DNA from: Piedraia hortae CBS 480.64 | Lineage: Eukaryota | Direction: 5' to 3' | Assembly (NCBI GenBank): GCA_010093745.1 | Contig: MU005960.1 | Location: 124,001-185,555, forward strand | Length of the DNA stretch: 61,555 nucleotides | Part shown: positions 1-15,618 of the stretch, in pieces | Numbering within the stretch: position 1 is the first letter of the stretch | Layout of the letters: every line of letters begins with the position of its first letter | The notes under the pieces: generated by a model | Seen by the model: only the letters and a program-made list of their open reading frames with translations | Told to the model about the DNA's origin: nothing | The model's database searches: none | Translations under genes and position numbers: made by a program

Positions 1-889
1 AGCTTGGGCAACCCCCTGAATAGCCGCAGCCAGTCTTCCGTATCGACTGACAATTTGGCGCGGGATGAAAGGCCTACATCATCAATATAGAGATAGGATA
101 GGTTGCCCAGCTTGGCAATCGAGCAAACGTGTCGCTGACGATGAATGGGAATCCATCACCTGGGCCCTAAGCAAGTTTCCTATCCAGCTTCGTCAAGGTT
201 GGAAAGGTGACCAAGGCCTCGAAAAAGATAGATAACGAAAGTGTAATCGTAGTCCATGCAGACGTCATCTCGCTTTGTACTTTGGTGGTTTTTTCTACCG
301 AAAAAGGCTCGTCTGAGTTGACAATACACTGGAGCAGCGATTGACATATGTACAGCTGAACTGTTAAGCGCCGCAGCTTTTTGCGCCGGATGAGTGGTAC
401 GAAAAAGCGCTTAATGTACGATTTTCTGATGAAAAAGGGCAGTGCAACATGCCCCAGATTCGGAAAATGGGCAAGGATAGCGTACGGCCACATGCTCTCG
501 TAGGGAGTGCAATGCGCCTTAAGCTCAGCAAGGCTTTTGGGTATGCTGAGCAAAGATTTCATGTTGATGCAACGTACCAATGAACCTATTTCCAACGTCT
601 TTAGACGTAGCAATGCGTAGTCTTTCATTCGGTCCGCCCACAAAGCATCGGGCACCAGGTGTAGTACCTGGACCAAATCGACAAAATTCTGGCGCTCGTC
701 TTCGCGTACAAGTCCCAGCGTCCAACCATCCACGTCATTCCGGAGGATTTCGCTCCCTGGCCCGCGCCAATCAAAAGCTCCTAAGCGAGGTTCGGTCTCC
801 CAGCGATATTTGTGCGATTTTGAGCAGGATCTCGTCTGGTACGTGGGACCTGCTTTGCTGCGCAGATGGGCCTTGTTGCTGTTAGGCAT
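1..889 (-). pseudogene. F-box/LRR-like paralog copy 1, frameshifted, running off the window start
   Basis: ORF 167..889 (DWRGPGSEILRNDVDGWTLGLVREDERQNFVDLVQVLHLVPDALW...PLIRRKKLRRLTV) aligns by eye with 2228..3502. Similarity to the paralogs continues past the stop at 167: nt 7-70 resemble 5308-5370. Confidence 0.7.
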
Positions 890-1222
890 TTAAAGGCCCG
901 CTATAGTGTTGCATTGCTGCAGAGTGCGGTTGCTGTGGGCAATGCGTGATGTCTTCGCGATTCGTGGAAAAGTTTGAGTTCGATGACGACAGAAACAATA
1001 TTTGATTTGAACGCAGAAGCTAAGAAGGTAGATAAAGCTGTCGACCCGTACATACAACCCGGATGCCAAAGTCATGTTTTCCTACATTGCGTAACCTATA
1101 CCCCACCTTCTGACCTGAGACCTCTTTTAAAAGATGTCAAACCTTCTATCAACATGAGTGCATTCGCCACATCGCATCTTCCTGTTCCCGTATGTATGCG
1201 GTGATCCAAGCGTGACGCTATG

Positions 1223-1512
1223 AGTGTACGATGCCACTACGCGACACCTCATATACAGCTGCACCCTAGGTTTTGTCCACACAGAGGTTTCCCTCATGGT
1301 CATGTCGCATGCGACATTGTGAGTGCGCCCTGCTACTGTTTGAGGTGACTCATGGAGTAATACTGCATGCTTACGTTCATACGATTTATGACTCTTCATA
1401 GGAGGCTACGCACTGGCTTTCCGGTCCAGAATATATTCTCCGATGTCCCCCTCGTATATACACTTGTATTCACTCATACACACAACTCTACTCACTATCC
1501 ATCGTTCTCACT
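1223..1512. repeat. Duplicated ~290 bp non-coding block, copy A
   Basis: agtgtacgatgccact...cagctgcaccctaggttttgtcc...ggtcatgtcgcatgcgacat...ccatcgttctcact recurs in the same orientation at ~5962-6288. Confidence 0.9.
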
Positions 1513-2227: not shown

Positions 2228-3502
2228 TTACTGATAAGAGACTCTCTGATGGTTGAAAATAAGTATTTTGGTGTCGCTGTCCAGCGAATCCGCGTCCCAG
2301 GATTTGGGCGCAATCGTCTCGAAGATCCGTATCGCTTTTTGCGGTATGTCCTCCACCGCCCAGTCTGTTAGCGCAATGCCCCCCAACTCTAGAAAAACTA
2401 GGTTCGGAAACAGACACCTTGTTTCGTCTTGAAAGATAGTCAAGTCTAGTGAGCTGGCAATGACGCATTCTTCCAACTTCGGGCAGCTGATTCCTAGACC
2501 TCTGAACGCTGTAGCATCGAAAACACCTTTTATGTCCAGATCAAAAACGGAAAGGTTGAGCAATCCGGTGAAAAGGCGTAGCCAATCTTCAGTAGAGACG
2601 AAGAACTCGTCAGGCGCAAATTCGAGATTGCCATCAAATGTTAGACGGGATAAATTGCTGAGCTTTGCGATCAAAGCAAGTGCATGGCTGTTAATTACTG
2701 GAGATTTGTTATCCGGGTTGCTGGAGATTGCCAAATGCACATCCTCCAAGGTTTGCAAAGTTTCTAGGGCCTCGAAAAAGACCGGTGATGGCTTTCTGGG
2801 CGCTATCCACAAGGTGGTAATATTGCTCTGTACTTTAGTAGCCTCTACCCCCGAGAGAGGCTCGTTTGAGTCGGCAATATATTGAAGGAGCTGTTGACAA
2901 GTGTACGGATTTACCTTTAAGCTCCGCAGCTTCTTGCGCCGAATGAGTGGCATGACAAACTGCTCAATCTGTAATCCTTCTATGTCAAAGAGCAGTTCAA
3001 TGTCCTCAAGATTGGGTAAGCGGGGAACGAGGGCGTACAAGGGCTGAACGCTGCTGATCTCAATCCCATGAAAGTTCACAATAGCGTTGATCTTGAGATG
3101 AACAAGACTCTTGGGTATACTGTTGTAGGCCCTTCTGTCAGTGCCACTCTTTGGTGGTGCTAATTCCAACGCCTTTAGTCGTGGCAGTGAACGATCCTTC
3201 ATCTGATATACCCACCAAGCGTCAGGAGCCAGACGCAAGATCTGGACAAAGTTTGCATGGTCTTGGCGTTCTTCTTCGGGTACATTTCCCAGCGTCTGAC
3301 TGTCCACGTCACCCCAAAGGATTTCAGTCCCCGGCCCGACCCAATCATGGCAGACTAGACAAAAGCTCCTAAGCGAAGCTCGATTGCCAAGCAAGCATTG
3401 TGCAACTTTGAGTAAGATTTCGCCCGGCAAGTGCATATTCCTCTGCCGCGCAGAGGTGTCTCGTTCTCCATTGGCGTACAAACGCTCGTTTGGTGATTGC
3501 AT
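2228..3502 (-). CDS. F-box/leucine-rich-repeat (RNI-like) protein, intact copy
   Basis: 424 aa ORF. N-terminal F-box-like LPGEILLKVAQCL...SLRSFCLVCHDW is followed by LxxLxL repeats (LPRLKALEL, LPNLEDIEL, LSNLSRLTF, CPKLEECVI, FPNLVFLEL). Confidence 0.8.
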   Translation of the reverse strand: MQSPNERLYANGERDTSARQRNMHLPGEILLKVAQCLLGNRASLRSFCLVCHDWVGPGTEILWGDVDSQTLGNVPEEERQDHANFVQILRLAPDAWWVYQMKDRSLPRLKALELAPPKSGTDRRAYNSIPKSLVHLKINAIVNFHGIEISSVQPLYALVPRLPNLEDIELLFDIEGLQIEQFVMPLIRRKKLRSLKVNPYTCQQLLQYIADSNEPLSGVEATKVQSNITTLWIAPRKPSPVFFEALETLQTLEDVHLAISSNPDNKSPVINSHALALIAKLSNLSRLTFDGNLEFAPDEFFVSTEDWLRLFTGLLNLSVFDLDIKGVFDATAFRGLGISCPKLEECVIASSLDLTIFQDETRCLFPNLVFLELGGIALTDWAVEDIPQKAIRIFETIAPKSWDADSLDSDTKILIFNHQRVSYQ

Positions 3503-4149
3503 GACTTCAGAGACTGTTTTTAGTGTGGAAAATGTGCTATTTTATTGTTTCGGGTGAGTGCGTGAAAGTATAAAAAGTCTGAGTGTAACAACATCTCAAC
3601 TAAAACCCAAAGATTGGCTGAGTCCCTGATCCAGAGCTCTGGGTTGTCATTTGGAGGTGGGGAACTTTGCGCCCCGTTTCCTGGTCTGACAACTGTCCCG
3701 ACAGCTGCCATACTGCTGTCAGAAGAACTACATGCTACGGTACTTCGGAGGAAATTGATCAATAACGAGGATGATCCGAACTGCTATCTAGTGGGGAACA
3801 CCAATACTATGAGCCAACGAGTTCTCTTTATCTACAGACGCATAATATCACACACCCTTAATTGATCCACCTTTCTCTCCTCCCTATGTTTCTGGGTGTT
3901 GACATTGTCGTATGCCGCTCCAGGTGGACCGGGTGTTACCGAGGGTCCCGGACGAACGGAACGGGACGTGGGCGGGTCTACGCGGTACGGGCCGCATCAC
4001 GCACCACATAGCTACCACCGATTTCGTGACGACCTTCAGGTCGTTACGTTCTGATCAATATAGAGGCTGTCTGAACCCATTCTGCACCCTCTGTGACATC
4101 GAGTCAGTTGCAGCCGGGGGTGAAAATGCGGGCCATCATGCCTTAAAGC

Positions 4150-4928: not shown

Positions 4929-5935
4929 CTATGCATCTGGATCAAATGGCTCTACCTCTCCATTTTCTGCCCTCGTCTGCGAATCATTCTCGAAAACAAC
5001 CCGGGTCGCCACGCCGAACGGATCATTACTCCGCATGTCAAACGAGCGGAGGTTGGAAGCGATGGTTTTGGAAATTCGTACCGCTTCATGCGGGATGTCC
5101 TCCACATTCAAGCCGGTAAGTCTGATACCACCCAGGCCGAGGTCAATGAGTCTTTGAAGCAGGCACCTTGTTTCACCTTGGAAGAGGGCCAAGTCCAGTG
5201 AGTCGGCGATGTAAATTTCTCGCAATTTCGGGCAGTTGGTTGCTAAATCCATAAGCCTTGTAGCTTCGAAAACACTTTTAACGTTCAGACAAAGGAGGAA
5301 AGTTTGCGGCAATCCCTTGAATAGCAGCAGCCAGTCTCGACTGGAGACAGAGAACCTGGCACGGGAAGAACTGGCTGTTTATCCAAAATATAAGGATTTT
5401 AAGTTGCCGAGTTTTGCAATCGAAGCAAAAGCATGACTATCGATGATGGAAGAACAGTGCCCTGGGCCATTTGCGACTATAAAACCCACATGCATCAGGG
5501 TTTGGAAGGATCCTAAGGCCTCGAAACGGACAGGTGACAGCTTTTCAATCGTGCCCCCGAATATGTTCATCACGCTATCTACTTTGGTAATCTCTGCCAC
5601 CGAGAACGGATCATCTGAATCGGCAATGTAATTAAGCATCATTTGACATGTAAACGGACTAACTGCTAAGTGTCGCAGCCTGTTGCGCCGTACGAGTGGT
5701 ATGACGAACTGCTCGATTTGCGATTTTTTCCAAGTCAAAGGGCAGTACGATCTCCTCAAGATTGGGTAAGCGGAGGATGAGTTCGTACAACGAATCAATG
5801 TTCTCGATCCACTAAAAGTTCACATCAGCGTTGACCTTGAGATGAACAAGACTCTTGGGTATACTGTTGTAGGCCCTTCTGTCAGTGCCACTCTTTGGTG
5901 ATATTAATTCCAGCACCGTTAGTCGTGGTAGCGAA
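4929..5935 (-). pseudogene. F-box/LRR-like paralog copy 3, 5'-truncated and frameshifted
   Basis: ORFs 4929..5312 and 5379..5798 match the C-terminal and middle parts of the 424 aa protein (CPKLREIYIADSLDLALFQGETRCL; QIEQFVIPLVRRNRLRHL). Nt 5815-5935 are nearly identical to 3071-3191. Confidence 0.85.
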
Positions 5936-5961
5936 TGTTGGCATGAAGTCTCGTTGCTATC

Positions 5962-6288
5962 AGTGTACGATGCCACTGCGCGACACCTCTTACACCAGCA
6001 GCTGCACCCTAGGTTTTGTCCTCACAGAGGTTTCCCTCAGGGTCATGTCGCATGCGACATGGTGAATGCGCCCTGCTACTGTTATGAGGTGAGTCATGGA
6101 GTAAGACTGCATGCTGACAGTCTTACTGCATGTATGGCCACTTGCTTATGGTCATACAATTGATGACTCTTCATACGATGCTACGCATGGGCCTTCCAGC
6201 CCAGAATATATTCTCTGATGTTCCCTCGAAGATATACTTGTATTCACTCATGAAAACACATCTCTACTTTCCATCCATCGTTCTCACT
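5962..6288. repeat. Duplicated non-coding block, copy B
   Basis: Direct repeat of 1223-1512 with substitutions and small indels. Confidence 0.9.
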
Positions 6289-6549
6289 CATACATTCTAT
6301 CTGTCTTTTTCAGCGAGCTCTGTTAGGTTGTAAATTGTTCTGGGCTGCTTGAAGTTGTAATGTTGAAATTTGGGGTCCGTTCAGTTTCCTCAGGCAGGAG
6401 CCAGTCCTAATAGGGTTAGGATGATCGGTAACTACAATAGCCCCCTGCACTTGGGAGTCCAGCCCAGGATAAACAGTCTCAACCTTGGAAACATCATTGG
6501 TTAACGACTAAATTCACCGGCCTCCGTTGGCATCATAAGAAACACGTCT

Positions 6550-7403
6550 CTACTGTACAAACTTCCCACGCCCCTTCAACTTTCTCAACTCAGCCCTCTG
6601 CTCAATTGACTCTCTGAGCAAAGTCACATCCAGACTCTGTTTCTGATCCTTAACATCCGCATAACTAGCGAAACGTGTTTTCTCCTCATCATCACTCTGT
6701 TTGGGATTAGCAACACCAGCAACGGTATTGACCATACCCTCGCGGATCAGATGTAAAATCAGCTCGTTGATCGTGGCGCCCCTATTTCTGCTCTGAGCAA
6801 GAAGAACACTAGACGCAATGTTTTGAACTCGTCTTGCCTGCACCGGACCGCCATTATCAGGCTGCACGACGGTCCAGCCCATCAAAGCCATGTATTTTTC
6901 CGCTAAAGGGAAAAACATGATTGCTGGACAGGCCTGCAGGAATAGTGTCAATGAGACGTTGATGGTATCGCCGAGACGGTCGATGGCTGCTGCCATGCGG
7001 ATCCTGCGATTGTTAGCCGTGTTGGGGAGTTAATTGAGGGGTATGCTTGCCATTTATCTTTTAGCGGATCGGCGCGCCAGAACACGGCGACGAGACGATC
7101 CGCGTCGAGCGGGGATTCCACGGGAATGCACGGGCGGTAGTAGTCTGGTCTTTAGTCGGTGGGAGTTGTGATGAGGTTGGAAATGCTTACGGCAAAAGAG
7201 GTCGTACGCGTGTGGTTTGAGGGGGTAGTCGGAAAGAGGGAGATCTGGCTGCACTGTAAAGCCTGAAGGCACAGGATTGAGGCTGGCGGCCTGCGGAGGG
7301 GGAAGTCAGTTTGGTGAAACAAGATGTATTACGATAATGGAGCTCTTACCTCAGCGGGGGTTATGGGGTGAGATGCATTGTTCCCGTTTGCAGGAGCAGC
7401 CAT
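6550..7403 (-). CDS. Diverged mating-type MAT1-1-1-like alpha-box protein, 4 exons (7403-7350, 7290-7191, 7144-7051, 7003-6550), 233 aa
   Basis: Manual splicing. Introns are 7349-7291 (GTAAGA..CTGAC..CAG), 7190-7145 (GTAAGC..CTAA..CAG) and 7050-7004 (GCAAGC..CTAAC..CAG), giving a 702 nt open frame. The product contains LFC^HYYRPCIP...LVAVFWRADPLKDKW^IRMAAAIDRL...LTLFLQACPAIMFFPLAEKYMALMGW...TINELILHLIREGMV. This follows the alpha-box pattern FRxYY...LWxxDPxKxxW..MAxA...LxxF...CP.....YL...GW...SVxDII....GY. Confidence 0.8.
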
Positions 7404-7995
7404 GGTTAGTGTTGTCTGTTGGATGTTGGTGTAGGAGAGCTTGCACGGTGTCACACGCCGCTGGGTGCACTTAGTTTACCTAGTGACGCGACCAGTCGCA
7501 CATGTGCTAGTCGAAACTTCCCAAAGGTGCAGTGTTTTACCAAGACGAAGTATTTCGTGTACAATTTGGCTGCTTTGAGACGTAGCTTGGCGCGAATCAA
7601 AATTTCAGCTCGTTGGAGCATTAACTGACTTTTTCCAAGTGAAAGTCCTCAGTGTCGATAATAATAATTCACCTAATGATTGAGTTTGTGCGCATCTTCA
7701 TGTCCATAGATTGATGTAAACAAAGTTGGAGGGACGGTCAACTTGAACACCCCCGCGAGATTAATAGTGGCTTTCGCCTCACGGTCTGAGGAAAAGTGGA
7801 AACGGAGTCATATTTGGGTTCCATCTTCAACCTCCACTTTCCTGAAGTGCCAAGGAAAAGTGCAAAGATATGACTGAAACCGATGGATGCTCACCACAAA
7901 CCCACACTCTCACCTCAACGATACAAAACTCTATCCTGCCCTACCCCATACCCATCAACAATACCGCGTTCCCCCAAACAGAGTATGTAGGATAC

Positions 7996-9381
7996 TCACT
8001 TCGGCCTAACATACGCCTTCCTCTCAACGACACCTCCCTGTTTCGAAAACTTAACCTTGGGCTTCTTCTTCTTCTTAACCTTCACAGTCTCATCCTCGCT
8101 ACTCTCAAAAAACAGGTCCTTGTCATCCCCCTCCCTCTCGGCCTTCTTCCTTCTCCCCTTATCCCCAGGTCCCTCAGCCCCCTTATCCTCCCCCTCAGTC
8201 TCCCCCCCAAGATGCAACCTCTCCGAAATCAACGCACCCCCCTCCCCAAATCCCCTGGCCTTATTAAACCACACCTCCGCACCTTTCAAGTCTCCCGAAA
8301 TTACCAACGCGCGACCAATCGCAAACGACGCATCACATACGAGGATATGGTTTGGTCCATACTGTTCTTCAGCAGCTTCCAGAGCGCGTTTGGCGAGTTG
8401 GAGGGCAATGTGGGCTAGACCGTGGCTTGCGCAAAATATGGCATAGTCGATTGTTACGCGGAGGGTGTAGGGGTGTTTGTTTCCGTAGATAGCTAGGAGG
8501 CCTGTTAGGGAGGTCGTGAAGTTCTTTTTTGCGTCTGAGGTGGCGGCGGAGGGCAGGGAGGTGGTTGCTGCGGGTGGGAGGGGGGAGAGGTTTAGTGGCA
8601 AGGGGTCGGTGGGGAGATCAGCGGTTGGGGCGGTGGTGGTGTCTCCTTTGTGAGGATTTTTGGAGGTAGACGGATCCCCTTTGGTATCTCCATTGGAGGC
8701 AGCTACCGTGGCATCAGCTTCCTTCCCGGCGAATGAATCCCCCTTACGGACACCCGCGGTAGCAGCCTTCACATAACTCCGCTTAGCAGCTCCAGCCGCC
8801 TTAGCAGCCTCTCCCTTAGAATTGTCGTCGGCAGCAGAACCAGCATAACTCTCCGCTCCCGTAGTCCAATTTGCCGACGCCACGGCATTAGCCAGCGCAT
8901 GCGCCGCCTCCAGCACCTGGATACTCGTGTCGGCATAATGGGCCGCATAATTGCCATACACATAATCCAACTCCTCCACAACCCAACGACTCTTGTTATC
9001 CAGAAACCACACGTACGTAGCCATATGCTGCTTGATGTCCAGCACCACAACATCATCCAGGAGGAGTTCCTCCATCATAACTTCCAAAACAGCGCGGAGG
9101 AGATTGGCTGCATCGTTTAGACGGCCGAGGTAGGCGTAGATGAAGGCCAAAGTGTGCTTGGTTTCGACGACCATGGGGTGTGTGGGCTCGAAACCTACGA
9201 GGAGGCTGTAGATGGTTGCGCTGTAGTCTTTTGCGTAGGTTTGGAGGAGTTCAGGCGTGGGGTTCGGGATGTTGTGTTCCAAGAGTTTGCGGAGGGTGGG
9301 CTCGTGGTGCTTGAGGAGTTCGTGGTAGAAAAGGCGTTCAGACCGTTTGTTGGGTAACTTTGGGACGTTGATATGTGGCAT
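7996..9381 (-). CDS. TPR-like repeat protein (kinesin-light-chain-type repeats) with a low-complexity central insert
   Basis: Long ORF with a probable ATG at 9381 (MPHINVPK). Repeated helical units: GFEPTHPMVVETKHTLAFIYAYLGRLNDA, YGNKHPYTLRVTIDYA, YGPNHILVCDASFAIG. The stop overlaps a possible GTGAGT donor, so the 3' end is uncertain. Confidence 0.55.
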   Translation of the reverse strand: MPHINVPKLPNKRSERLFYHELLKHHEPTLRKLLEHNIPNPTPELLQTYAKDYSATIYSLLVGFEPTHPMVVETKHTLAFIYAYLGRLNDAANLLRAVLEVMMEELLLDDVVVLDIKQHMATYVWFLDNKSRWVVEELDYVYGNYAAHYADTSIQVLEAAHALANAVASANWTTGAESYAGSAADDNSKGEAAKAAGAAKRSYVKAATAGVRKGDSFAGKEADATVAASNGDTKGDPSTSKNPHKGDTTTAPTADLPTDPLPLNLSPLPPAATTSLPSAATSDAKKNFTTSLTGLLAIYGNKHPYTLRVTIDYAIFCASHGLAHIALQLAKRALEAAEEQYGPNHILVCDASFAIGRALVISGDLKGAEVWFNKARGFGEGGALISERLHLGGETEGEDKGAEGPGDKGRRKKAEREGDDKDLFFESSEDETVKVKKKKKPKVKFSKQGGVVERKAYVRPK

Positions 9382-9560
9382 TTTTTTTTCGTCTTGGTTA
9401 TCTTGATGGGGAAGAGTAAGCTTTTGCGTGTGCTTGGAATTTCCCAAAGAGGAAGGTGCTTGATGACAGAATTTGTGTGTTGACTCGTTCTCAAGATCGA
9501 ATTGGTAAAAGGATTGCTCCCGAGCAATCTATACGCATGTGCTGTCATGGCTTTTTCCTA

Positions 9561-10697
9561 TCATGGCTGCCTGTCCGTCTTCCACCTTTCCCGAATTTTT
9601 TCAACCTTCTCTCTGGTCTCTCGACTAACACAAAGCACCGGATCAACATCCTTAGTTCCTTCCGTCCCGATAACCCCCAACGCCGCGAGACCCAAATACG
9701 AATGATACAAATCCGGAATCTCTCCACTCGTCTTGGCAAACCCACCCAGAAACTCGTGCGAGGCATCCAAAACCGAATTCCTGAGCTTATTTCTATCATA
9801 CAACGGTGCATGAAGCATCTCAAGCGAAGCAGACACCCAGAACGCGTAGCATGTATCTACCGGCTTCGATGGACGGCCTGAAATACCGGCACAATAATCA
9901 TTTCCTGGGCTCTCGGCCTGAAGATTAACAAGCCAGCGAACAGAATTAAGTGGCAAGATGGGCGCACGCATATCGCCGGAGACACTCTCGCCCTGACCGT
10001 CTTTCAGACTATTCAATCTCCCAAACAGCCCCAACGCCCCCAGCGTCGTATACAAATACCCCGCGTGCGCCTCCCTGTACCTCCCGGTAGTCGGGACGCC
10101 CTCCCACGAACTCTCCTCCGCCTGCTGCACCCCCCTCACAAACCCATCCACATCCACATCCCCCTCTACATCCCCCCCACCCAGTAAATACCTCACTCCC
10201 GCCACACAAAACGCGAATCTCGTATCTCTCCCTCCCATAACCTCTTCTCCATGTAGCGTCTCCCCAAACGACCCATCCTGCCTCTGAAGTCTCCTCAACC
10301 AGCTAAGCGTAGCATCCCTCCTCACCCTCTCCAGATCATCCCGAAGAATAACCAACGTCGCGAGCGCAAAAAACGTAGCGGGCACGTGCGCGGGGTCCCA
10401 GATTGCGTTCTCAGCGGTTGCGGCCCCTCCGAGGTCTGTGCCGGAAAACATTCTGAACCCGCCGCCGGGGTGTTGGAGGGTATAGATGAAGTTTATGTAC
10501 GGGGCGAGTAGTTCAGGAGGGGGGAGGGCGGAGAGGAGGTCTAATGCTGAGATGATCATGAAGGCGAGGTAGAGACGGTTGCTATCGTTGGAAGTGTATG
10601 CTGAGGGTAGGAGGGAGTGGAGACATCGCTGCCAGTATTTGATTTGGAGGGGTTTGTTGAAGGGCATGGTAGGGGTAGGGATGGGCAACCCCACCAT
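9561..10697 (-). CDS. CDC43: Geranylgeranyl transferase type I beta subunit
   Basis: YWQRCL..LP..YTSNDSNR, LQRQDGSFGE, D.RF.FC, EAHAGY, GRPSKPVDTCYAFW, PDLYHSYLGLAAL (zinc-binding D-x-C and H). Confidence 0.9.
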   Translation of the reverse strand: MVGLPIPTPTMPFNKPLQIKYWQRCLHSLLPSAYTSNDSNRLYLAFMIISALDLLSALPPPELLAPYINFIYTLQHPGGGFRMFSGTDLGGAATAENAIWDPAHVPATFFALATLVILRDDLERVRRDATLSWLRRLQRQDGSFGETLHGEEVMGGRDTRFAFCVAGVRYLLGGGDVEGDVDVDGFVRGVQQAEESSWEGVPTTGRYREAHAGYLYTTLGALGLFGRLNSLKDGQGESVSGDMRAPILPLNSVRWLVNLQAESPGNDYCAGISGRPSKPVDTCYAFWVSASLEMLHAPLYDRNKLRNSVLDASHEFLGGFAKTSGEIPDLYHSYLGLAALGVIGTEGTKDVDPVLCVSRETREKVEKIRERWKTDRQP

Positions 10698-10825
10698 TGG
10701 TTGGGATGTGGGGTGGTGGGGTTGACAGCGGGTTCCTGCATGCGGGGAGCGGGGCTGACATGTGATTGTGAGCTTGACGGAGGCAGATGCTGTTATATGA
10801 ATGCAAAGCTGGGGATATCACGGGT

Positions 10826-11644
10826 CTATCTCAACGCAGCCTCCAACCTCCTCCCCACATTTCCCCAACAAATGGTCCCCACAAACGCCGCTGACGCAAA
10901 CCACGTAATGGCCGCGACTTTCTCCTGGCTCGCCAATCCGAACAGCACCCTCCCCACCTCCATCTCCCTCGGAACCACAAACCCCGGCCTCACAAGCAAA
11001 CAAACCCCCGTAACCGCCACCGCATTTCCCGCCGCAAGCCCAAACCCCGAAATCGTCCTGTCAATGAGGTACCAAATCGCGGGATTCGCCAGCGCAAGAG
11101 TAAGCGATAGTTGCATCGTCGACTCCCACGGTAGCCTCCTTATCGCGAATGCGACCCCCACAAACGCACTCACCGATCTCACGGCATGTAACCAGTCCTT
11201 CGTATCAGCCTCCTCAGTCTCCGCGTCTAGCCGCGGCAGTGCAAGACCCATGAGAACCGCACACCCCGCCCAAAGAACTGTCGGCGGACCCCCCGTTCCG
11301 CTGGGATGTAACTGTCCAATCAGAAAACCATAGAGCAGTCCCACCGCCACCAGAACCGCAACTCGCGCGACCAGCGAGAGTAGTAAATATCCCCGGGTTC
11401 TTTTCCGCGTGTACCTCCTGTCCGGCTTCCGTACAGTGGTAGGAGTCTGCGCCCCCGTGCCAAAGGGTGTATTGTCTTCCGTAGGCTGATAAATCCCCGA
11501 TAGCGTCGAGCCAGTCAGATTCAGAAAACTCTGAGTTTTGTACGGCGTGCCTCCTCCATCAACAGTACTTCTATCGTTCGTAGGCGTCGACGGAGCCGAG
11601 GACGGTGCGGAGGATAACTCGAACATGCGTGATGAAATAGCCAT
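10826..11644 (-). CDS. INSIG-family (Nsg1/Nsg2-like) ER membrane protein
   Basis: SFLNLTGSTLSGIY; WLHAVRSVSAFVGVAFAIRRLPWESTMQLSLTLALANPAIWYLIDRT; C-terminal WFASAAFVGTICWGNVGRRL. Confidence 0.85.
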   Translation of the reverse strand: MAISSRMFELSSAPSSAPSTPTNDRSTVDGGGTPYKTQSFLNLTGSTLSGIYQPTEDNTPFGTGAQTPTTVRKPDRRYTRKRTRGYLLLSLVARVAVLVAVGLLYGFLIGQLHPSGTGGPPTVLWAGCAVLMGLALPRLDAETEEADTKDWLHAVRSVSAFVGVAFAIRRLPWESTMQLSLTLALANPAIWYLIDRTISGFGLAAGNAVAVTGVCLLVRPGFVVPREMEVGRVLFGLASQEKVAAITWFASAAFVGTICWGNVGRRLEAALR

Positions 11645-11797: not shown

Positions 11798-13057
11798 ATG
11801 GCGACAACCCAGCTCCGCATCCGCCTGCACACGCAAAGCGAGGACCTCAAACTCCCCTCCGACCACGGACCAGTCGTCGTCTCGACCTCTCTTGCGCGCT
11901 ACCAGCTCTCCATCCTTGTCAACAAGCTATTACAAACTGAGAAGCCCATCCCCTTTGAGTTCCTAATCCAGAGCCAGTTCCTCCGAACCTCGCTGGGGGA
12001 GTTTCTCGCAAAAAATGGGATTGCGAATGAGAGCGTACTCAACGTGGAGTATGTTCGCGCGCTGGCCCCACCGCTTTATGTGGCGAGTTACGAGCATGAG
12101 GATTGGGTTTCCGCCGTGGATGCGCAGGATGAGAGGGTGTTGAGTGGGAGTTATGATGGGTTGGTTCGGGTTTGGAATGAGGTCAATGAAATTGTTGCGA
12201 TGGGGGAGGGACATCTTGGGCCGGTAAAGGCTGCGAGGTTCGCGGAAGGGTGTGTTGTGAGTGGTGGGATGGATAGGACGGTTAGGGTGTGGGCAAAAGG
12301 TTTGAGGCCGGTGATGGAACTGTATGGGCATCATGGCCCCGTTGAGAGTGTTGCTGTGCGGGGGTCGAAGGTTTTGTCCGCTTCCGCGGATGGGAGGGTG
12401 GGGGTTTGGAGTACGAGTTCCACGGCCCTGCCTGAGGCGTCGGATGAGCTTGTGCCCGTGGCGAACAAGAGACGGAGGTTGAGCGTTGCGGAGAACCAAA
12501 AGGGACCGTTGGACATGCTTGAGGGACATCATGCACAGGTTTCGGATGTTTGTTTCGATGAGGGAGATCCGACGGTTGCGTATAGCACGTCGTGGGATCA
12601 TTGTGTTAAGACTTGGGATTTGACGACGGGGATGTGTGTTGATACGAGAAGCACGGCGCAGAGTTTGTTGAGTATCTGCCATTTGCAGGAGCAGTCGCTG
12701 CTGGCGGTGGGGACGGTGAATAGACATATTACCTTGGTGGATCCAAGGACATCGGCGACGAATGTATCCGTCATGACGCTGAGGGGACACACGAATGTTG
12801 TTGTCTCGCTGGATAGAGCGCCTGATTCGGCTACGCAGCTTATATCCGCGAGTCACGATGGGACGTGTCGGATTTGGGATCTGAGGTCGATCCACAACGA
12901 TGCAGCAGAGAAAGTCAGCGAGAGTGTCTATGTTATACACCGGAAGAGTGCAGAGGGGAAGAAGACGACAAAAGTCTTTGACGTATGCTGGGATAAGCAG
13001 CTGGGCGTGTTGAGTGCCGGGGAGGACAAGTGTATACAGGTAAACCGGCCGGGATAG
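11798..13057 (+). CDS. YTM1: Ribosome biogenesis WD40 protein Ytm1/WDR12
   Basis: N-terminal NLE domain (LSILVNKLL.TEKPIPFEFLI..QFLRTSL..FL..NGI..E..L.VEY), HEDWVSAV, WD repeats, SWDHCVKTWDL. Confidence 0.92.
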   Translation: MATTQLRIRLHTQSEDLKLPSDHGPVVVSTSLARYQLSILVNKLLQTEKPIPFEFLIQSQFLRTSLGEFLAKNGIANESVLNVEYVRALAPPLYVASYEHEDWVSAVDAQDERVLSGSYDGLVRVWNEVNEIVAMGEGHLGPVKAARFAEGCVVSGGMDRTVRVWAKGLRPVMELYGHHGPVESVAVRGSKVLSASADGRVGVWSTSSTALPEASDELVPVANKRRRLSVAENQKGPLDMLEGHHAQVSDVCFDEGDPTVAYSTSWDHCVKTWDLTTGMCVDTRSTAQSLLSICHLQEQSLLAVGTVNRHITLVDPRTSATNVSVMTLRGHTNVVVSLDRAPDSATQLISASHDGTCRIWDLRSIHNDAAEKVSESVYVIHRKSAEGKKTTKVFDVCWDKQLGVLSAGEDKCIQVNRPG

Positions 13058-13113: not shown

Positions 13114-14295
13114 TCACAATAATCCCCTGCTCTCCCCCTCAACCCAAACTGCATTCATCCCAAACCCCGGCTCATTGACCTCAACCCTAGCCACCCTCCC
13201 CAACTCCATCGCATTAAACCTATAAACCTCAACGAAACCCCTCTCATCATCCGTCAACGCAACAAACTCCTCCTCCCACGGACACGGCGCAACCGCATTC
13301 GAGTGTCCACCGCTCGTACTCGTCGGGGTCATCACCACCCTCCTTTCAATCCCCTTATCCCCCAATTCAAAGACACTTAAATACCCCGAAAAGTTCTTGT
13401 CATTCGACCTCGCCGTCGCGAAGAGGTACTTCCCACTCGGCGATACAACGCACACATCAGAGCGGAACATCCCCGGATATGTGGTGTTATATCCCTTTGG
13501 TACGAGATCATACGCTTCCCCGGTATAGCCCGGCTTGTGTGAGGAGAGGCGGTAAACGCAGAGTCTGTTCCCCGCTTCCATCAGCACAAAGAGGAACCTA
13601 TCCCCCCGCGAAATCGAAACCCAGCGGGGGTGGTCGTTCGGGTCCGGCGCGGGAGTGGAATCTACGTACTCCAGCTCGCCGTTCGGTAACTACCGCCCAT
13701 CAGCAAAGCCAAAGCCTAAAGGAGGGATGGAATACCTTCCTATGCGTCCAAATCCTATTCGCCCACATATCGGCACTGTACAGGTACCCCTCCCCCTCGT
13801 CAAACACCATCCCATGCACCGCCGACTTCTCCTCTAACCTCACATCCTGAATCGTCCGATCTAGCGTCCCGGAGGGTGTCACCCTCTGCACATTAATGTA
13901 CCCCGCGTGGTCATAGAACGGGTTACAGTAAACGTAATACGGCGACTTACGGCCTGCGAGGCAGAAAATCGCGCGGGTCTTTGTCTCGCTTCGCGCTGCC
14001 CGCGGGTCGCCGGTTAGAGGGAGGGAGACATCGTGGGTTATCGTGGTGTTGTTGATGGTGTAACTCCCCCATTTCTTCATTCCCGCGCCGTAGAGGTTTT
14101 TGCGGTTGTGCGAAGGGGTAAGCCATGATATAGGCTCGTCGTGGGGTATGGGGGTTCGCTTGAGGAGGGTCAAGCGGTGAGTTACGCTGTCGAAGGTGAA
14201 GATGAAGAGTGCGCCTGGGGGGGTCCTGATGGGTTAATCGGGGTTTTGGGGACGGGAGAGACAAACCAGGTCCCGACGATGAGGTTGTATTTCAT
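13114..14295 (-). CDS. 3-carboxy-cis,cis-muconate lactonizing enzyme (beta-propeller lactonase), 3 exons; introns 14266-14226 and 13735-13690
   Basis: Spliced product MKYNLIVGTWTPPGALF...DEPISWL...TRAIF...HGMVFD...YLYSADMWANRIWTHRK...DHPRWV...SGGHSNAVAPCPW...EPGFGMNAVW closely follows fungal CMLE. Confidence 0.9.
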
Positions 14296-14988: not shown

Positions 14989-15618
14989 CTACTTCTCCGG
15001 CGCCTCGGGCAGCCTCTCAATCTTGTACCCTCCCCGAGCCACGCTTATGATTGGCACACCGGGGATCTTTCTCAGCCTCCGCTTCAAGTCCTTGTCATTT
15101 GTTCCCACGAGGTAAACTCGATGCTTCATCACTCGGTCGACAATGCAGTCGTCGGCATAGGTGCCCTTGTGGTCGCATTTCAACCTCTCCCACCTCTCGT
15201 CCCGTGCAATCTGTAGCGCAATGCGGTACTTTTGTCCCAGTTTCTCCAACTCTGCCATGACGCAATCGGTTATTATCGGATTGCAAGTCGCATACAGCGT
15301 GTCCATTAGCGAGGGGAGAAGTGGCAGCTTGTGGTGGACAGTATGTGAGAGGAAGTTGGTATCGATGAGGATCTGATAAGGCGGCACGAGGGCTGTGTTG
15401 TGGGCAAAGAAGAGATTGCTCTGCATGCGAGGTCTGGCAAACTGTTAGCCGGTGTACATAATGGTGAAGAAAAAGACTTGCACTTCTCGAACGACGTTAT
15501 CATCCTTATCGGATTTTGGTTTGGACGTCCTGACAAGGTTCTTCCTAATCCTCGAGTCTCGCTGGGATATGACGCGCTTGACTTGGGCAAACTTGCGGGT
15601 GCGCTTTGCGGTGCCCAT
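14989..15618 (-). CDS. FCF1: PIN-domain rRNA-processing protein Fcf1/Utp24; intron 15481-15434 (GC-AG)
   Basis: MGTAKRTRKFAQVKRVIS..D.R spliced to ...LVPPYQILIDTNFL...ITDCVMAELEKLG.KYRIAL...HKGTYADDCIV...TNDKDLKRRLRKIPGVPI. Confidence 0.93.

Follow-up and report, generated by a model that had tools for sequence, protein, structure and literature searches.

The closest described counterparts of the gene discussed here are the MAT1-1-1 mating-type (MAT) genes of Capnodiales and Mycosphaerellales, as in Hortaea werneckii, where the gene order is APN2-MAT1-1-1-PF10296 (PMC3744574). Piedraia hortae, placed in Capnodiales (PMC7082219), carries an alpha-box gene on the minus strand (7403-6550) of the 61,555-nucleotide stretch analyzed here and called the window (strain CBS 480.64, assembly GCA_010093745.1, contig MU005960.1, positions 124,001 to 185,555). 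This gene resembles the MAT1-1-1 genes of H. werneckii, Acrodontium (P0007), and two metagenome loci (L071 and L074) in its alpha box, its collinear downstream region, and the motif Y-[LMIF]-x3-G-W, and two of its intron positions are those of the L071 gene. Unlike them, it lies away from APN2 and the PF10296 gene, has Asp and Cys in place of the helix-1 Met and Arg, and has lost the basic tract and the acidic tail.

Other systems offer partial parallels. In the homothallic Hymenoscyphus fructigenus, MAT1-1-1 also lies off APN2 and SLA2 amid unknown genes, but MAT1-2-1 stays at APN2-SLA2, whereas in P. hortae the APN2 site is empty and MAT1-2-1 was not found (PMC10569646). Xylariales without canonical mating-type regions (Robinson and Natvig 2019, as cited in PMC7407469) likewise have a missing or highly divergent MAT region, although they belong to another class and P. 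hortae retains a traceable, intact alpha-box descendant. Unisexual Neurospora africana and its relatives have a sexual cycle with the genes of a single idiomorph, and unlike P. hortae they keep a conserved mat A sequence (PMC4500084). The main text of the P. hortae genome paper has 0 occurrences of "mating" or "MAT1" (PMC7082219), and no report on P. hortae MAT genes was found in the literature, supplements being outside the scope of that search. An unlinked MAT1-1-1, single-idiomorph sex, and missing canonical MAT regions are each already known; their combination was not found reported. Aylward and colleagues reportedly described in 2022 that Mycosphaerellales with a normal MAT locus also have short, intron-less pieces of MAT genes elsewhere, and that work may well cover this genome. 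Such fragments would be like the P. hortae gene in being derived from MAT1-1-1, off the locus, and in the same order, and unlike it in that the P. hortae gene is whole, intron-bearing, and open, with no normal locus found.

The P. hortae genome comprises 16.95 Mb in 132 contigs; the contig that holds the window is called C4, and the window is C4:124001-185555. The alpha-box gene has 4 exons, which when spliced encode a stop-free protein of 233 residues:

7350..7403, minus strand: exon 1, with the ATG at 7403 and 18 codons; the frame of exon 2 has no ATG of its own
7191..7290, minus strand: exon 2, which terminates in the degenerate helix-1 segment
7051..7144, minus strand: exon 3, which carries the W-x-x-D-P-x-x-x-K-W part of the alpha box
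7004..7050, minus strand: predicted intron 3, GC-AG, which interrupts a Trp codon
6550..7003, minus strand: exon 4, with the last helices and the Y-[LMIF]-x3-G-W region
6450..7592, strand undefined: single mismatch-free contig of run X2, unspliced across the alpha-box gene

Introns 1, 2, and 3 measure 59 nt (GT-AG), 46 nt (GT-AG), and 47 nt (GC-AG), and all three have donor, branch-like, and acceptor sequences. The sole public model of the gene, P0001, covers exon 4 only (148 residues, without a Pfam domain). Hexamer scores support the upstream exons as coding, since exons 1-3 score 0.286 in frame versus -0.33 and -0.52; this value and that of exon 4 (0.272) exceed those of the nearby CDC43 (0.163) and INSIG (0.08) genes, and 2.9% of random frames reach such a score. 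The W-x-x-D-P-x-x-x-K-W segment of exon 3 is the only match to that pattern among 1.36 million six-frame residues of C4 and C16. Upstream, at 7503, an ATG in the covered 5' region opens a frame of 7 codons. Only two runs hold the region, X1 and X2, and both are identical to the window over the gene; the assembly is supported because one X1 contig spans 6266-11640 with zero mismatches.

Several lines of evidence identify the gene as a true MAT1-1-1 homologue. References were MAT1-1-1 and MAT1-2-1 sequences from 26 metagenome loci, found in a scan for APN2, plus three database MAT1-1-1 proteins. Against a hidden Markov model (HMM) of five MAT1-1-1 sequences, the spliced protein scores 33.6 bits, compared with a maximum of 3.5 for 1000 shuffles. 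BLASTP aligns it to Acrodontium P0007 with an E value of 9e-11, and hhalign assigns exon 4 a probability of 93% (E 2.6e-7). In Pfam, exon 4 alone matches only PF04769 (MATalpha_HMG; E=0.0011, 18.7 bits, gathering cut-off 28.1) and exon 3 alone has no match; across the whole genome, the PF04769 profile yields exactly one match, this gene. The Y-[LMIF]-x3-G-W motif, at residues 120-126, lies in the register seen in five references. That register matters, because the bare motif Y-[LMIF]-x3-G-[WL], described downstream of the alpha box by Martin et al. (PMC2999568), arises 30 times by itself in the frames of C4 and C16. Introns 2 and 3 agree in position and phase with those of the L071 MAT1-1-1, including the intron in the Trp codon, which is GC-AG here and GT-AG in L071. 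The L074 gene shares intron 2 but not intron 3, so that 2/3 of the L071 introns and 1/2 of the L074 introns are in common; one further downstream intron of both is lacking in P. hortae. Given this homology and the two intron positions in common, the gene is descended from the MAT1-1-1 of its lineage, and the initial annotation was right to call an alpha-box gene here, although the gene is far more degenerate than it recognized.

Database searches with exon 4 revealed no relatives. A word-based search with exon 4 returned P0001 alone, and a full HMMER search against 1.84 billion representatives found no relative; its other match, P0002, is a repetitive unrelated protein aligned over 26 residues and was rejected. 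Comparison of exon 4 with the PDB gave chance matches only (E about 2), and with the Atlas nothing at 0.9 or above.

The protein is strongly degenerate, and the residues with which MAT1-1-1 contacts DNA are lost. Where the helix-1 consensus has F-[MIV]-[AG]-F and then an Arg that contacts DNA (PMC2999568), the gene reads Y-D-L-F-C, in a register that is fixed by the intron in common. Two anchoring aromatic positions are retained, the intercalating Met is an Asp, and the Arg that contacts phosphate is a Cys. The core has a net charge of +1 versus +6 to +9 in the references, and the upstream basic tract one of -3 versus +5 to +8. The protein, at 233 residues compared with 319-373 for MAT1-1-1 of Capnodiales and Mycosphaerellales, has no acidic C-terminal region. 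Core identity to the MAT1-1-1 references is 20-27%, whereas the four Capnodiales-like references are mutually 55-81% identical; only 11/32 invariant reference columns are retained. Toward Capnodiales MAT1-1-1 alone the gene shows 20-24%, compared with 36-49% for a Chaetothyriales MAT1-1-1, and P. hortae APN2, by contrast, is 56-58% identical to the same relative loci. What persists is the HMG-like fold's aromatic core, together with the Y-x-x-x-x-G-W region downstream. Overall, the sequence argues against a protein that binds specific DNA sites and activates the genes for pheromones and their receptors.

The reading frame has nonetheless stayed whole. In a point-mutation model, 4/2000 neutral decays to 25% identity over 150 codons remain free of stops, while adjacent F-box copies at 44-68% identity are broken, which suggests that selection has long acted on the protein but not on its canonical binding to DNA. 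Because neither its helix 1 nor its location agrees with the standard pattern, it would be wrong to classify the gene as an ordinary MAT1-1-1 or its surroundings as an ordinary MAT locus, even though it is MAT1-1-1 by descent.

The initial annotation placed the gene outside a recognizable MAT locus, having seen no APN2, SLA2, APC5, or COX13 in the window, and the rest of the genome strengthens that case. APN2 (C16:81.4-83.0 kb) and APC5 (C16:84.0 kb) lie head to head on contig C16, SLA2 lies at C16:241 kb, and COX13 is at C1:588 kb. The possibility raised against it, that APN2 and APC5 lie just left of the window, does not hold: the 124 kb of contig to the left contains synaptojanin-like, Sec10/F-box, and other genes and none of APN2, APC5, SLA2, and COX13. 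Beyond APN2, C16 runs without an N gap through genes for an aspartic protease, mitochondrial L19, and a phytoene desaturase-like protein, and no MAT gene adjoins APN2. Among relatives, MAT1-1-1 or MAT1-2-1 lies downstream of APN2 in 7/9 informative loci, that is, those with at least 2.5 kb past APN2 (17/26 loci were shorter and were dropped); since the L074 and L075 proteins are identical, this amounts to 6/8 distinct loci. The ancestral APN2-APC5 site is emptied in this assembly. It is not unique in this, as locus L069 (11869-20990) has APN2 without a MAT gene within 9.1 kb. After APN2, L069 has ERT1-like and RhoGAP genes, both of which lie beyond APC5 in the P. hortae genome, and in L071 MAT1-2-1 and MAT1-1-1 both adjoin APN2 with two open reading frames (ORFs) between them, a homothallic-type arrangement. 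The DUF2404/PH flank gene had no match in the genome with a query of 1055 residues, and the PF10296 profile found MMM1 only. The gap next to APN2 contains 20 bases that resemble the spliced gene, but this likeness was noticed post hoc and not counted, as 7.8% (protein) and 3.6% (DNA) of 1000 random stretches reach it.

Two genes that flank the APN2-APC5 block, at C16:75.9k and C16:103.8k, are presumably a phytoene desaturase-like and a phytoene synthase/cyclase-like gene. Phytoene desaturase and synthase/cyclase genes are often adjacent in fungi, and their position on both sides of the block hints at an inversion there.

No other MAT gene was found within the reach of the searches made. A search of the P. 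hortae genome with P0007 found no canonical MAT1-1-1, but it missed the alpha-box gene as well. HMM and tblastn scans of C4, C16, and ten other stretches revealed no further MAT or accessory gene, and five ORFs of relatives, taken to be the accessory genes MAT1-1-10 or MAT1-2-12, had no tblastn match at an E value of 0.05 or below in the same sequences. At C16:144.6 kb, a peptide that resembles helix 1 (11.7 bits, E 0.18) is antisense within a CIA30-like gene, ends in a stop, and was dismissed as chance. The genome search proposed by the initial annotation thus located APN2, SLA2, and APC5 off the window but yielded neither another alpha-box gene nor a conserved MAT1-2-1.

The HMG-box profile PF00505 has 13 matches in the genome, and a MAT1-2-1 exon query finds its best matches at six of these places with 31-38% identity, versus 63-79% among relatives. 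None of these falls within the supported MAT1-2-1 clade (98/97). A lineage family of five intronless MATA-type HMG paralogues lies at C49:52.6k, C9:394.7k, C4:66.3k, C38:124.9k, and C4:416.3k; they lack the HMG intron, several have Cys pairs around the box, and two are broken. A tree in which these five group with MAT1-2-1 is not rejected (p-AU 0.33), the HMG family being poorly separated. No accessory MAT gene lies within 10 kb of three of the five, and a homologue search with one of them returned only itself and two unnamed proteins.

The surroundings of the alpha-box gene combine a repeat junction with genes of lineage-specific and conserved families:

9..923, minus strand: broken F-box-like copy, which extends past the left end of the window
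1217..1512, no strand given: older copy of the same long terminal repeat (LTR) as at 5936..6312, 79% identical
2228..3541, minus strand: open F-box-like frame, 437 residues from stop to stop, F-box-like E 0.017
5022..5937, minus strand: broken F-box-like copy, frameshifted, with the first 115 residues missing at the LTR edge
5936..6312, no strand given: young solo LTR, TG...CA, 237 bases beyond the alpha-box stop codon
7996..9378, minus strand: TPR_12 gene (Pfam E 1.5e-13)
9561..10667, minus strand: prenyltransferase beta subunit gene, CDC43-like (Pfam Prenyltrans)
10826..11644, minus strand: INSIG-family gene (Pfam INSIG)
11798..13057, plus strand: NLE and WD40 gene, YTM1-like (Pfam NLE+WD40)

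The neighbors named by the initial annotation, a TPR-like gene, CDC43, INSIG, and YTM1, are borne out by these Pfam assignments, with the names CDC43 and YTM1 being presumptive. The decaying F-box/LRR array it described holds up in part: three F-box-like copies are present, two broken and one open, but LRR has no Pfam support at E values of 1 or below. Further copies of this F-box lineage family lie at C4:72-79 kb and 106 kb, and C4 also has TPR_12 genes at 102 kb and 109 kb. X2 leaves the array mostly uncovered, a gap that was given no weight as evidence, and a short lower-copy repeat with raised depth and variants lies between two F-box copies at 3950-4060.

The young solo LTR had escaped the initial annotation. 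It belongs to a family with 370 candidate copies, of which 40 were scored, the 39 others being full length at 95-99%; nine near-full-length copies are on C4 and a single fragment on C16. Perfect 5-bp target duplications flank 9/11 other inspected copies, whereas the flanks of 5936-6312 agree at 4/5 bases. Moreover, the adjacent F-box copy breaks off exactly at the LTR edge and does not resume. Because of this imperfect flank match and the truncated F-box copy, the LTR is a rearrangement junction; which side moved, and when, it does not tell.

Taken together, these features lead us tentatively to favor, at somewhat less than an even chance, a displaced MAT1-1-1 descendant that outlasted the dissolution of the MAT locus as a cofactor which does not bind DNA. 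The MAT1-1-1 of the lineage has left the side of APN2, perhaps moved by LTR recombination, and now lies at the LTR junction, surrounded by F-box and TPR genes that are specific to the lineage. Very fast evolution then followed with the frame staying open, giving a protein that has presumably given up DNA binding and with it the part of master activator of mating type. The retained fold may instead bind partners, such as Mcm1 or another HMG factor, and assist or damp them, its putative working surface being the conserved downstream region. The downstream region of MAT1-1-1 affects fertility in Neurospora and Cochliobolus, and Mat-alpha1 works with Mcm1 in yeast (PMC2999568). Full-length protein would be made only once all three introns have been removed, probably when the fungus fruits on hair; the nodules of black piedra hold asci, each with eight ascospores (PMC2938571). 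Sexual reproduction would then proceed without a conventional two-idiomorph MAT locus. A bolder form of this account is doubtful: that this dothideomycete has dismantled its MAT locus, with no MAT1-2-1 and no DNA-binding MAT1-1-1, and that a single splicing-switched alpha-domain protein acts as a DNA-independent cofactor in a rewired sexual circuit, perhaps through the intronless HMG family.

Several points weigh against a displaced cofactor. Splicing of the gene is predicted, and the X2 contig keeps all three introns, while X2 shows skipped introns in two nearby genes (14224-14266 and 15433-15482); the unspliced contig counts against the proposal unless splicing is stage-specific. However, X2 is only guessed to be RNA, and since minor forms are lost from contigs, an unspliced contig does not prove that splicing is absent. 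The Fcf1 gene has a GC-AG intron (15434-15481) that is skipped in X2. The two runs provide no second divergent isolate. The sensitive HMM scans span about 0.9 of 16.9 Mb, and a MAT1-2-1 as diverged as the alpha-box gene may be hidden, because the P0007 query missed the alpha-box gene itself. The displacement may also be less than it seems: one MAT-neighbor gene of locus L070, near APC5, maps to C4:395 kb, so that the two contigs C4 and C16 may belong to a single chromosome and the move may amount to no more than an inversion. Finally, the phylogeny with canonical MAT1-1-1 called for by the initial annotation leaves the gene unplaced (end branch 10; p-AU 0.25 for a grouping with L071 and P0007).

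The absence of a second MAT gene admits two readings in which the gene still works in mating, both unlikely and to a similar degree. The gene may be the working MAT1-1 idiomorph of a heterothallic species whose whole locus moved, so that in isolates of the opposite type the interval from the LTR to the TPR gene would hold MAT1-2-1. One alpha-box gene with an intact frame and no MAT1-2-1 is what a MAT1-1 strain would look like, and related Teratosphaeria species are mostly heterothallic (PMC7513301). On the other hand, the unique stretch is only about 1.7 kb, the residues that contact DNA, the basic surface, and the acidic tail are lost, and MAT1-1-10, expected in the MAT1-1 idiomorph of this family (PMC7513301), was not found on C4 or C16 with the five candidate ORFs. 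Alternatively, the gene may be half of an unlinked homothallic pair, its partner being an equally diverged MAT1-2-1 at another site, a MAT1-2-1 missing from the assembly, or a member of the intronless family of five HMG paralogues. The unlinked MAT genes of a homothallic species suggested by the initial annotation do not stand as written, since they need a MAT1-2-1 and none was found, but the search is blind at such divergence and one could be missed. The grouping of the five paralogues with MAT1-2-1 is not rejected, and H. fructigenus provides a precedent for an unlinked MAT1-1-1 amid unknown genes (PMC10569646). Set against this pairing are the low identity of the MAT1-2-1 exon matches, the lack of any match in the supported clade, and the paralogues themselves, which have no HMG intron, include two broken copies, and in three cases have no accessory MAT gene within 10 kb.

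Two further readings are less probable still. It is quite improbable that it is a recently dead or dying relic, transcribed and unspliced, that yields at most a 24-residue peptide and a 148-residue product of exon 4. Such a relic would fit the unspliced X2 contig, a public model confined to exon 4, the loss of key residues, and a position among broken F-box copies, but all three introns retain their splicing sequences, two of them at ancestral positions, and no stop or frameshift has appeared after saturating change, whereas adjacent F-box copies are already broken. Least probable is an ancient non-MAT alpha-box paralogue, with the true MAT genes lost or unassembled. The separate MAT1-1-like paralogue of the initial annotation needed a canonical MAT1-1-1 elsewhere, and none was found. 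Lower identity to Capnodiales MAT1-1-1 than a Chaetothyriales protein shows, and the lack of the downstream intron of L071 and L074, would agree with an ancient origin, yet exon 4 has no relative among the representatives searched, and the Trp-codon intron, common to L071 and not to L074, points to an origin inside this order.

As a displaced descendant of MAT1-1-1, the P. hortae gene shows how such genes escape notice: its public model is one exon without a Pfam domain, and a normal MAT1-1-1 query fails to find it. Genomes reported to be without MAT genes may hide similar remnants. The gene also tests what the downstream Y-x-x-x-x-G-W region does alone, and the combination of an intact alpha-box gene without DNA contacts, an empty MAT site, and ascus-bearing nodules as the usual form on hair makes P. 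hortae a small, culturable system for asking whether filamentous ascomycetes can reproduce sexually when canonical MAT factors are absent.

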